A DNA stretch of 60,754 nt from Enterobacteria phage JenP1. The position numbers and the translations under genes were made by a program. Under the pieces are notes generated by a model, which saw nothing but the letters and a program-made list of their open reading frames with translations, was not told where the DNA came from and searched no databases. The stretch is from the sequence record NC_029028.1. One strand, given 5' to 3'. Positions 28,456-34,102 of this stretch are shown here, piece by piece (positions within the stretch are counted from its first letter, which is position 1; every line of letters begins with the position of its first letter).

Positions 28456-29409
28456 TTATTCGTCAAATAAATCCTGGAGACGTTCGTTGAACTTCCCATT
28501 GTGGTTAGCAAGAATCATAGCGTTGACCACACCATACGCCCATAAATTGTATGCAGCGCGTGATTCGTATATCGTTGAAAGTCGTTCGTATGTGAAACCT
28601 GACTCCTCTAAGTAGCGCAGAACGTTATTTTGTTCTATTTCTGAAAGATTGCAGATATGTTGCCCTTGATAGTGGCGTGACGGTGACTTTTCGGATACCT
28701 GCATTGGACCCCACTTAGGAGTTTCAATAGCACCAAACGCTGCAGATTGGATCCAGGAGGATGAGTCACAGGAGTACCACGGGTAACGCTCCATAAGTGG
28801 GCGGGACGTAATACCAAATCCGTGGACTTTAATCTTAGCTCGCCCACTACCGTCTACAAGGTGTTTATCCCATACCCTGTCCAACCATACCTGGAGTTGT
28901 TGCGTACTTGCTCCAACAAGACCACCGAGCGTGATATACTCATAATTCCGTACATAATGGTCCAGGTATTCAAAAGGTTCACCCGCGTGGAAGCATGGTA
29001 AAGGTCTTACACCTCTGGCTTCCATCTCTTCCTGGTTGCGCCACGTTTGAAGTGGATCACCGATACCATCGAGTACGGACGCCATAAGTGAGCCGTCTTC
29101 TACACGGATGATATCTATGTTTCGTTGGATGTAATCACAGTATTCTTTAACTGATAACGTAACTCCCAAAGTGTAAGCTGAGAACGCCCCGGAGTCGAGG
29201 AATATCTTGGCCCCATCGGCACGCATGGCATCAACATAGGATTGCTTTCCAACGTAATGGTAGGACTCCAATATATTAGGAACTCCCATGACAAGTTTTT
29301 GTTCATGGGGTGTCAATTTTACAAAGCGATTCATTCCAGGTTTATAACTGTTTGTGTATACAGCCGCTAAATATAAATTGAATGTATAATCTATATCTTC
29401 TCTATACAT
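28456..29409 (-). CDS. dpdA: DpdA-like DNA 7-deazaguanine transglycosylase (TGT superfamily)
   Basis: 317 aa; TGT-like motifs IFLDSGAF and VHGFGI; located in que gene cluster. Confidence 0.7.
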   Translation of the reverse strand: MYREDIDYTFNLYLAAVYTNSYKPGMNRFVKLTPHEQKLVMGVPNILESYHYVGKQSYVDAMRADGAKIFLDSGAFSAYTLGVTLSVKEYCDYIQRNIDIIRVEDGSLMASVLDGIGDPLQTWRNQEEMEARGVRPLPCFHAGEPFEYLDHYVRNYEYITLGGLVGASTQQLQVWLDRVWDKHLVDGSGRAKIKVHGFGITSRPLMERYPWYSCDSSSWIQSAAFGAIETPKWGPMQVSEKSPSRHYQGQHICNLSEIEQNNVLRYLEESGFTYERLSTIYESRAAYNLWAYGVVNAMILANHNGKFNERLQDLFDE

Positions 29410-29890
29410 CGAACTTATTTCCTTTCGATCTGTTCTCGTGCTTTGGTAAATACTGTAAATTACACATTACATGAAGTCCACTTACCAACTCGCCAAGTAG
29501 AGGTATTATATGATCCACTTCATACCCATCTGGGCAATTTTCGTAGAATCGTTTAATCTCTTCTTTCTCTGACCATGCTGGAACTCTTAATAAACGTTGT
29601 GCTCTACAATAGGACGATATACTTCTACATAAATGTTTATTATCTTCATAGAATTGAGATTGTCTAATTCTATTTCTCTCTTTAACATCTGGTCTTTGAA
29701 AATAATCTCTGTTAGCTCTCCTGTATTTTTCAGGATTTTGTTGATAATATTTAATCTGGTCTTCGTTAGCACAAACTACACATCCACCAGTGACATGTCT
29801 TTCTGCTATATGACCTCTCTTACAAGGTTTACCAGTATAATAACGTTTTAGCCCCTTCTCTATAGCTTGTTTTCTAGATATAATGTGCAT
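29402..29890 (-). CDS. HNH endonuclease
   Basis: 162 aa; HNH core EVDHIIPL...GL...N.Q; N-terminal Cys/His cluster; AGGTGA RBS. Confidence 0.65.
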   Translation of the reverse strand: MHIISRKQAIEKGLKRYYTGKPCKRGHIAERHVTGGCVVCANEDQIKYYQQNPEKYRRANRDYFQRPDVKERNRIRQSQFYEDNKHLCRSISSYCRAQRLLRVPAWSEKEEIKRFYENCPDGYEVDHIIPLLGELVSGLHVMCNLQYLPKHENRSKGNKFDV

Positions 29891-29959
29891 TGTTCACCTA
29901 ACAAATAAGCGCCCGTAGGCGCTTATTATATTAAAGATAACGTATGATTCGCAAATCAG

Positions 29960-30559
29960 TTACTTTTTACACGCTTCAAGGAATTCTTTGCGCCAAATGT
30001 AACCGTTCTCAGTTTCCATACCGAAATCACCAATCGCAGTTGCGCCACGGAATGCTTTAGTAATAGTAGAGCTTCCGCATACCTGTTTAACACCGCGCGA
30101 CTCCATACACATATGCTTGGCGTCAATATAAACACACACAGCTTTCGGGTCCAAGTGCTCTACGATGGCATCCGCAATTTGGTTAGTTAGACGCTCTTGG
30201 ACTTGCAAACGACGAGCAAAAGCATCTACGACGCGAGACAGTTTAGAAAGCCCAACAATTTTCCCATTTGGTACATATCCCACAACAGCACGACCGATAA
30301 TGGGAGCCATATGATGCTCACAATGGCTATAAACTGGAATATCACGGACGATGACCATTTCATTACAGTTTTCCCCACCATCTTCAAAGGTCTTGAACAG
30401 AGATGCAATATCAGTATTGTAACCACCGAACCACGTCTCAAATGCTTTAGCAACACGTTCAGGTGTTTCTTCTAACCCTGGACGAAGAGGACCAAAATCA
30501 TTTTCTTCAATCTGACGAAGGATATTTTCAATGTGTTGCGCAATAACAAATTTATTCAT
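29960..30559 (-). CDS. folE: GTP cyclohydrolase I
   Basis: 199 aa; VRDIPVYSHCEHHMAPIIG and GLSKLSRVVDAFARRLQVQERLT closely match E. coli FolE motifs. Confidence 0.85.
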   Translation of the reverse strand: MNKFVIAQHIENILRQIEENDFGPLRPGLEETPERVAKAFETWFGGYNTDIASLFKTFEDGGENCNEMVIVRDIPVYSHCEHHMAPIIGRAVVGYVPNGKIVGLSKLSRVVDAFARRLQVQERLTNQIADAIVEHLDPKAVCVYIDAKHMCMESRGVKQVCGSSTITKAFRGATAIGDFGMETENGYIWRKEFLEACKK

Positions 30560-30585
30560 GGTTTACAGTTTCCTTGTGTGGTCAA

Positions 30586-32519: not shown

Positions 32520-32520
32520 A

Positions 32521-33282
32521 TTATTTACCTTCTTTAACCATTTCAATTTCACGCTCAACGGATACAATAATGTCGTTGAGGTCTTCTAGCAAGTCTTTAT
32601 GACCTCGCTCACCAGCACACAGCACTTTCTTCAGTGCATGTTGCATGGGCCCACTGGTTACATTGAATGCTTTAATTACGTCGTACACGTCAACCCATAC
32701 ATCAATTTCGATTGGGCTACCATTAATGTCATGGGATTCAAAAGTTTTAATTTTGCGCATATATTTATTTGGACGTGGAGCTTTAATCTCCTGGATACAA
32801 CCCTTGTCGATAAACGTTTCTTTAATGAATACTTCAGGATTGCCTTCTTTGTCACGGTCAACGTTAAAGACATTCATAAGTAGATCGTCCATGATACTGG
32901 TTAATTTCTGAGTAGACGTTGTGTGCTTCACGGTATTCGCTTCCGCTTCTTCTGGCACTTTCTGGCTTCTTCTGGCAGAAGCATTGATTCGCCATTTGTA
33001 AAGTGCATTGCGTGGAGGTGTTACATGCGTGTTGTAGACAGTCTTTAAGTTCATAAGATCGTGTCCATCCATACCTTCAACAAAGACAGTGAGTGCAGGA
33101 CAACTATCGTTCAAAACATCCACTACATATCCTTCTCGAATTACAGATGCAAGAGCTGCATGGGACGCGGCCTGAGAAACTGTGGTTACATAATGTTTTA
33201 CAAATCCGTCTTCATCAAACAGACACTGGTTCAACACATTTTCTGGAACGATTTCACCGAGTAATTGAACGTACTTATTCAT
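32521..33282 (-). CDS. hypothetical protein embedded in 7-deazaguanine cluster
   Basis: 253 aa ORF between queE and gat-queC, translationally coupled to gat-queC; no motif recognised. Confidence 0.45.
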   Translation of the reverse strand: MNKYVQLLGEIVPENVLNQCLFDEDGFVKHYVTTVSQAASHAALASVIREGYVVDVLNDSCPALTVFVEGMDGHDLMNLKTVYNTHVTPPRNALYKWRINASARRSQKVPEEAEANTVKHTTSTQKLTSIMDDLLMNVFNVDRDKEGNPEVFIKETFIDKGCIQEIKAPRPNKYMRKIKTFESHDINGSPIEIDVWVDVYDVIKAFNVTSGPMQHALKKVLCAGERGHKDLLEDLNDIIVSVEREIEMVKEGK

Positions 33283-33394
33283 AATGATTTACCTTATCAG
33301 TTGAACATACCATGTCTTCTAGCGCGTTGACCGTCACCGGCATAATGATCATTAGCCACAGCAATCATCCACGCGTTTTTGAATATGTATAACT

Positions 33395-34102
33395 TCACTC
33401 TACACCTAAATACTTGTGAACCTGTAATTGCACGATGTAATTATGCTTCATTGCATATTTAACGACAGCTTGAGCGTTTGCTTTATTAGCATCGTCGTCC
33501 TGTTCATCCATAGGTTGAAGATAAATTTTACCTTTAAAGTGTACAGGCGGACGTGCGATAAATGGTGTCGCACGGTGATCCAGTGCCTGCAACGGTAATC
33601 CATCTTCCTCGTTGACGTTTCCGCTTTTCATTACATATTTGAAAGCATCTGCTCGAGCGGAAACGCTAGGGTGAACCTTTGCTGCCTTAGGACTACATAC
33701 TACCACACAGTTATAGTTGAGTTCACGCGGGATGGGCATAGTTCCGTTAGTTTCAACCTGTACACGATAACCTTTCATATCGATAAGGTAGTTGATAAAA
33801 TTAACAACTTCGGGTTGACGGAAAGGTTCGCCGCCAGTAATGACAACTAATTTAGTCTTGGCTTCACCAGTGACACGGACAATCTCTTGCCAAATGTCAC
33901 CGTGATTCATCTTCTTACGATTGGACGTATAGTTTGTGTCACATCCTGGGCATTGCAGATTACAACCAGCTAATCGAACAAATACGGCGGGTTGACCACA
34001 AAATGGGCCTTCACCTTGAATGGTATGAAAAATGGAATGTACATCAAGAATACCACGTTCACGAACTAGCTTCTCAGGTTCCTGAGTATTAATAATTTTC
34101 AT
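33395..34102 (-). CDS. queE: 7-carboxy-7-deazaguanine synthase (radical SAM)
   Basis: 236 aa from ATG 34102; motif IQGEGPFCGQPAVFVRLAGCNLQCPGCDT matches QueE. Confidence 0.8.
   Translation of the reverse strand: MKIINTQEPEKLVRERGILDVHSIFHTIQGEGPFCGQPAVFVRLAGCNLQCPGCDTNYTSNRKKMNHGDIWQEIVRVTGEAKTKLVVITGGEPFRQPEVVNFINYLIDMKGYRVQVETNGTMPIPRELNYNCVVVCSPKAAKVHPSVSARADAFKYVMKSGNVNEEDGLPLQALDHRATPFIARPPVHFKGKIYLQPMDEQDDDANKANAQAVVKYAMKHNYIVQLQVHKYLGVE

Follow-up and report, generated by a model that had tools for sequence, protein, structure and literature searches.

The genome of Enterobacteria phage JenP1 (NC_029028.1) carries on its minus strand, at positions 28456-34204, seven closely packed open reading frames (ORFs) that very probably include a deoxyarchaeosine (dG+) DNA-modification module of this member of the genus Nonagvirus (subfamily Queuovirinae). 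The window, i.e. the whole stretch of DNA analysed here, is the complete phage genome of 60,754 bp, which has already been published and annotated; its genome announcement gives the size as 607,454 bp, a misprint (PMC4505120). Five of the ORFs code for enzymes, namely FolE, QueD, QueE, a fusion of an amidotransferase with QueC (Gat-QueC) and the transglycosylase DpdA, all of which were assigned by PHROGs. The gene content, the motifs, the fold of DpdA and the near-identity to the proteins of phage 9g are results of the present analysis; the enzymatic activities, the dG+ product and the protection from restriction come from the papers on phages 9g and CAjan. From these sequence comparisons we strongly infer that JenP1 behaves like 9g, with dG+ in its DNA.

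A first-pass annotation of this DNA had proposed a 7-deazaguanine hypermodification cluster combining the route to 7-cyano-7-deazaguanine (preQ0) with an enzyme able to insert the base into DNA. This proposal holds: the five minus-strand genes and all the motifs quoted for them are present, and the cluster is of the Nonagvirus type, with enzymes sharing 78-99% identity with those of 9g that were tested by experiment. The gene set was incomplete, as two more ORFs, coding for an HNH protein (29402-29890) and for a 253-residue protein (32521-33282), had been overlooked. The interval had also been closed at 34102, but the ATG found there is internal to queE. The actual start is the ATG at 34159, with a GAGG Shine-Dalgarno sequence 5 nt upstream, and the same start, giving a protein of 254 residues, is annotated in relatives. 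Lastly, the system had not been recognized as one already described.

The cluster is embedded in the replication module, with the order helicase ... queE, the 253-residue ORF, gat-queC, queD, folE, the HNH ORF, dpdA, clamp and DNA polymerase (PolB), on one strand throughout. This synteny is that of the 9g/Nonagvirus-type clusters, and the order of the cluster genes is kept in phages SE1, 9g, FritzHoffmann, CAjan, Vid5 and NP1. The dG+ cluster of 9g (9g_00003-00008), also located in the replication module, agrees with it in gene content, order and orientation. JenP1 differs from it by the additional HNH ORF between folE and dpdA and by divergent alleles of FolE (83% identity) and QueD (78% identity, six residues shorter). 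At the DNA level, the cluster is 91% identical to that of 9g and 94% identical, over 99% of the interval, to that of the Nonagvirus Salmonella phage SE1 / SE1Kor, the closest one in the phage collection. The DpdA and HNH proteins of SE1 are 100% and 99% identical, respectively, to those of JenP1, but its QueD only 78%. The remainder of the genome matches at 90-95% those of JenP2, BRET, PD328, ESCO3 and JenK1, all of them Nonagvirus (Queuovirinae). Exact sequence matches link the QueD, Gat-QueC and 253-residue proteins of JenP1 to AKA60901.1, AKA60902.1 and AKA60903.1, respectively.

The three enzymes leading to 7-carboxy-7-deazaguanine (CDG) are all present with intact motifs, and their Pfam matches (PF01227, PF01242 and PF04055) are above the cut-offs. 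FolE, the GTP cyclohydrolase I (29960-30559, minus strand, 199 residues), matches GTP_cyclohydroI (PF01227) at 2.9e-63 and the NCBIfam FolE models above their curated cut-offs. It harbours the zinc motifs CEHH and HMCMESRG (HxCMxxRG), and it is 93.5% identical to FolE of SE1 and 82.7% to that of 9g. QueD, the 6-carboxy-tetrahydropterin synthase (30586-31101, minus strand, 171 residues), matches PTPS (PF01242) at 6.4e-22, with 78.2 bits for a cut-off of 22.4, and PHROG 2389 at 4.6e-56, and it has the C-x3-HGH motif. QueE, the radical-SAM 7-carboxy-7-deazaguanine synthase (33395-34159, minus strand), matches Radical_SAM (PF04055) at 3.8e-11 and PHROG 2076 at 2.8e-70. Its radical-SAM motif CNLQCPGC is found at residue 66, and it is 98.8% identical to QueE of 9g. 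Its top five NCBIfam matches are all QueE models, though under their equivalog cut-offs.

The queD allele is unusual. Its product shares only 75-78% identity with the majority of the Nonagvirus QueD proteins, including those of 9g (78.4%), SE1 (78%), JenP2 and JenK1, and 85-88% with those of BRET, of the Seuratvirus phage VogelGryff and of phages OddieOddie, SA126VB and CSP1. Together with the likewise lower conservation of folE, this mosaic pattern points to exchanges of preQ0-pathway genes between lineages making dG+ and lineages making dPreQ0, the deoxynucleoside of preQ0.

The fourth enzyme is a class-II (N-terminal nucleophile) glutamine amidotransferase fused to QueC (31104-32519, minus strand, 471 residues). 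One ORF matches both Pfam QueC (1.1e-55, residues 269-474 of a 487-residue translation) and GATase_7 (3.5e-07), and PHROG 10428 matches it over its full length (5.4e-287). The protein starts with MCSIFG, and it harbours the PP-loop SGGMDS at residue 259 and the zinc Cys cluster CYRNGDLHCGTCGPC at residue 435 (Cx7Cx2Cx2C). Translation starts from the ATG at 32519, so that the nucleophilic Cys is residue 2; the TTG at 32567, which opens the longest ORF of 487 residues, was rejected as an artefact. We also rejected an ordinary asparagine synthetase (AsnB), a possibility raised in the first-pass annotation. The C-terminal domain scores 188.8 bits with QueC for a Pfam cut-off of 22, and the AsnB model TIGR01536 scores just 28.8 bits for a cut-off of 267, over the GATase part alone. 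JenP1 Gat-QueC is 97.0% identical to that of 9g and had been noted among the 9g homologues with 95-98% identity (PMC5567051).

As in other clusters of the 9g/Nonagvirus type, the fusion takes the place of a stand-alone QueC, and it is common to all Nonagvirus phages. A six-frame translation of the whole genome yielded no second QueC-like ORF, in line with the earlier remark that a stand-alone QueC is missing. That remark had left two explanations, a fusion performing both steps or a supply of preQ0 by the QueC of the host. For 9g the matter is settled in favour of the former. When 9g dpdA and gat-queC are expressed together in Escherichia coli, dG+ represents 9-18% of plasmid G and the DNA resists EcoRI; the modification persists in ΔqueC and Δtgt hosts and is lost in a ΔqueD host (PMC6884629). 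In the ΔqueC host, the two genes yield only dG+ (PMC6884629). Because dG+ is made in the absence of host QueC and not in that of QueD, the 9g fusion both makes preQ0 and amidates it, the product being channelled to DpdA. The association of Gat-QueC with dG+ instead of dPreQ0, also put forward in the first-pass annotation, is a published conclusion (PMC6884629, PMC8594841).

The JenP1 DNA might nevertheless be modified with dPreQ0 or with another intermediate, dADG or dCDG, if the Gat domain were inactive or if the divergent QueD or FolE were limiting. The dG+ product in JenP1 is deduced from homology, QueD is just 78% identical to its 9g counterpart and closer to alleles of dPreQ0-making Seuratvirus-type phages, and some dPreQ0 remained in E. 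coli under low expression of Gat-QueC (PMC6884629). However, JenP1 Gat-QueC is nearly identical to the 9g enzyme, with Cys2, PP-loop and zinc cysteines all intact, and the fusion is shared by the entire genus. Furthermore, the steps of QueD and FolE precede the formation of preQ0, so that these enzymes cannot alter the end product. We thus regard an end base other than dG+ as quite improbable, and dG+ as the expected product.

Next to the preQ0 genes, dpdA (28456-29409, minus strand) codes for a 317-residue protein of the phage DpdA1 type, a predicted DNA-guanine transglycosylase. The protein belongs to the superfamily of tRNA-guanine transglycosylases (TGTs), carries the motif IFLDSGAF at residues 69-76 and matches DpdA in PHROGs at 8.3e-99. 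It is 100% identical to DpdA of SE1, 94.6% to that of 9g and 68% to that of CAjan. The best matches of its structure model are the archaeosine TGT (arcTGT), bacterial TGT and bacterial DpdA, with arcTGT at the top. Profile searches retrieved FolE, QueD, QueE and QueC in Pfam, and DpdA in PHROGs but not in Pfam, NCBIfam or PADLOC; the matches obtained are well above what chance would give. In particular, DpdA does not match the TGT profile with its zinc-binding subdomain (PF01702) in Pfam or NCBIfam at E-values up to 10.

The last result bears on another explanation, according to which the cluster serves tRNA modification by increasing the queuosine or archaeosine content of the tRNA of host or phage and thereby tunes translation. 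This is how the cluster was read in the original 2015 genome announcement (PMC4505120), the RefSeq name of the dpdA gene is still 'queuine tRNA-ribosyltransferase', and the DpdA fold is as close to tRNA TGTs as to bacterial DpdA. Nevertheless, in addition to the failure of DpdA to match the TGT profile, we found no tRNA genes in the whole 60,754-bp genome, and queF, queA and queG are not encoded. As to the 9g genes, dpdA does not complement a Δtgt mutant and gat-queC does not restore queuosine in tRNA in a ΔqueC mutant (PMC6884629), yet together they modify DNA. Moreover, dG+ was detected directly in 9g DNA. A tRNA enzyme, also envisaged in the first-pass annotation as a reading of the TGT-like gene, is therefore scarcely credible here, and modification of DNA is by far the better account of the cluster.

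By analogy with 9g, the dG+ module would work in four steps. FolE, QueD and QueE would convert GTP to CDG, with FolE acting first to form dihydroneopterin triphosphate (H2NTP). The QueC domain of Gat-QueC would then turn CDG into preQ0 in an ATP-dependent manner, and the class-II amidotransferase domain, with Cys2 as its nucleophile, would hydrolyse glutamine to provide ammonia. The ammonia would convert the nitrile to the formamidine of archaeosine, before or after insertion of the base. Finally DpdA, a TIM-barrel protein of the TGT superfamily, would put the 7-deazaguanine base in place of a subset of guanines in the double-stranded DNA of the phage. The expected outcome is that about a quarter of the G residues become dG+, a change that would block many restriction enzymes of types I and II.

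These activities are taken from the published experiments. The folE, queD and queE genes of 9g complement the corresponding E. coli mutants, and 9g dpdA alone generates low levels of dPreQ0 in plasmid DNA (PMC6884629). In 9g DNA, 25-27% of G is dG+, and out of more than 200 type II enzymes approximately 71% cannot cut it (PMC5567051). Virion DNA that contains dG+ and resists EcoRI, BamHI and similar enzymes is known for 9g only. A ΔdpdA mutant of CAjan loses both the modification and the resistance to restriction (PMC6884629), and Nonagvirus phages withstand type I and type II restriction-modification systems in vivo (PMC8594841).

Several points weigh against a dG+ module in JenP1. The product is assigned to this phage by homology, and conservation relative to the tested 9g proteins is lowest for QueD and FolE. 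QueD, QueE and the QueC domain score under the NCBIfam equivalog cut-offs. The structure model of DpdA is poor beyond residue 217, and neither the single sequence nor a 47-sequence profile of DpdA found a match in Pfam (E-values up to 10), NCBIfam, PADLOC or the sequences of the PDB; its aligned homologues span just 70-94% identity, an alignment too shallow to make a sensitive profile. With hhalign, the DpdA profile aligned with E. coli Tgt over no more than 23 residues, those surrounding the DSG motif, with a probability of 1.9%. In addition, two ORFs of the cluster, those for the HNH and the 253-residue proteins, have no assigned role.

The first of them (29402-29890, minus strand, 162 residues) separates folE from dpdA and shares 8 nt with the start of the latter. 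Its product matches PHROG 1035, 'endonuclease VII', at 1.1e-25, and it harbours the HNH motif EVDHIIPL...N...ENRSKGN. The ORF is missing from 9g and CAjan, and the proteins of SE1 and FritzHoffmann are 99% and 57% identical, respectively, to that of JenP1. The JenP1 protein is also 51% identical to an annotated homing endonuclease that Pseudomonas phage NP1, of another genus, carries at this junction. These relationships suggest that it is one of a family of homing endonucleases found repeatedly at this site across Queuovirinae, and not an enzyme of the pathway.

The second ORF (32521-33282, minus strand), the orthologue of 9g_00007 with 95% identity, codes for a conserved protein of 253 residues that matches PHROG 18443, a family of unknown function, at 1.4e-176. 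Its stop codon is located 1 nt before the ATG of gat-queC. In Nonagvirus-like phages the gene is always found between queE and gat-queC, and this position is held even in relatives in which the proteins are only 35-38% identical; further loci with the protein or its C-terminal domain are 8001-8681 of L004, 1091-1813 of L005 and 6404-6973 of L007. The C-terminal domain of the protein, of about 80 residues, has the motif KY..R...DVYDV...QHxxKK.L..G.RGHKD and shares 48% identity with the C-terminus of a 189-residue protein encoded within the CAjan cluster. It occurs in 754 phage records, counted irrespective of whether they contain a 7-deazaguanine cluster, and only 17 of these match the full-length protein. 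This domain may resemble the DUF3310/SaV-like domains, a likeness that is supported by no test and that we do not claim. The AlphaFold2 model of the protein has a mean predicted local distance difference test score (pLDDT) of 67.6 and a predicted template modelling score (pTM) of 0.39, and Foldseek gave no PDB match better than E 0.16. Pfam searches with the protein and six homologues were negative, as was a phmmer search of the PDB with the C-terminal domain.

The 253-residue protein, the HNH protein or both might be working parts of the machinery, for instance a DpdB-like helper or a specificity factor, so that the module would comprise more than five components. The bacterial DpdA requires the ATPase DpdB (PMC10164549), and the 253-residue gene is translationally coupled to gat-queC, keeps its position down to 35% identity and shares its C-terminal domain with a protein of the CAjan cluster. 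However, dpdA and gat-queC of 9g suffice for dG+ insertion in E. coli, which makes the 253-residue gene dispensable in that setting (PMC6884629). The Gat-QueC clusters of Vid5 and NP1 are devoid of the gene, its domain is mostly found in other contexts than the full-length protein, and 9g is fully modified without an HNH protein. No ATPase or ParB-like signature was found. We therefore consider additional components unlikely and retain a dG+ module of five enzymes.

The hypothesis that the 253-residue protein is a core partner of Gat-QueC was rejected, based on its absence from Vid5 and NP1 and on the sufficiency of the two 9g genes. It is also doubtful that this Nonagvirus-specific protein acts as an accessory dG+ factor, for instance by handing intermediates on among QueE, Gat-QueC and DpdA or by determining the quarter of the guanines that receives the modification. 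If it did, its C-terminal domain would serve hundreds of phages as a module that binds DNA or nucleotides.

Comparisons with other 7-deazaguanine systems help to place the JenP1 cluster. The dPreQ0 cluster of the Seuratvirus CAjan has the same pathway logic and order (QueE ... QueC ... QueD, FolE, DpdA, clamp, PolB). Its product is dPreQ0 because its QueC stands alone, without a Gat domain. It also encodes a preQ0 transporter-like protein, and it is devoid of the full-length 253-residue protein, harbouring only the protein that shares its C-terminal domain. The Dpd island of bacteria (DpdA/DpdB/DpdC, Salmonella Montevideo) is more distant. Sequence identity is approximately 17%, and the PADLOC Dpd models do not match the phage proteins. 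In contrast with this island, JenP1 has no DpdB ATPase partner, no DpdC and no restriction genes, and the end product would be dG+ instead of dADG. As neither a DpdA profile match nor a DpdB partner was detected, JenP1 DpdA was not placed in the bacterial system. Finally, the archaeal Gat-QueC/ArcS/arcTGT tRNA pathway has the fusion architecture and the archaeosine (G+) product in common with the phage system, but the phage substrate is DNA and not position 15 of tRNA. Furthermore, arcTGT (577 residues) has C-terminal RNA-binding domains that are missing from the phage DpdA (317 residues).

Some observations concern the surroundings of the cluster. A putative terminator-like hairpin (34182-34204, minus strand), with a 9-bp stem including five G-C pairs and a T-rich tail, was identified as a consensus match only. 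It is located approximately 20 nt upstream of the queE start, between the cluster and a gene for a coiled-coil-like protein of 274 residues (34228-35052). A scan for sigma-70 promoters gave 21 sites for 20.4 expected from shuffled sequence, i.e. no excess. The 12-bp pac core SRYCRCGGGRCG reported for 9g is present in two copies, 21 bp apart, at 56029-56061 on the plus strand, with 0.03 expected by chance. A cryptic site has been reported within the tgt gene of 9g; this core was not found in JenP1 dpdA at zero mismatches. In the replication module, SE1 carries an extra gene for a hypothetical protein of 186 residues (L001 1443-2003) between the clamp and DNA polymerase genes, which is absent from 9g and from JenP1 (27455-27458) and represents a further small indel. 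Reversals of the GC skew near 25 kb and 52 kb coincide with switches of the coding strand.

Neither this class of system nor its presence in this very genome is new, and the present instance adds nothing to what is known. The dG+ cluster of 9g was treated by Thiaville (2016), Tsai (2017) and Hutinet (2019; PMC6884629). By 2017, JenP1 Gat-QueC had appeared in a list of 9g homologues, and the primary papers and the BASEL survey cover the Nonagvirus pathway. Its importance is that phages borrow a tRNA-modification pathway to hide their DNA from restriction enzymes. Exactly such modified DNA is now targeted by newly described glycosylases of the host (Dag1; bioRxiv 10.1101/2025.10.29.685425).

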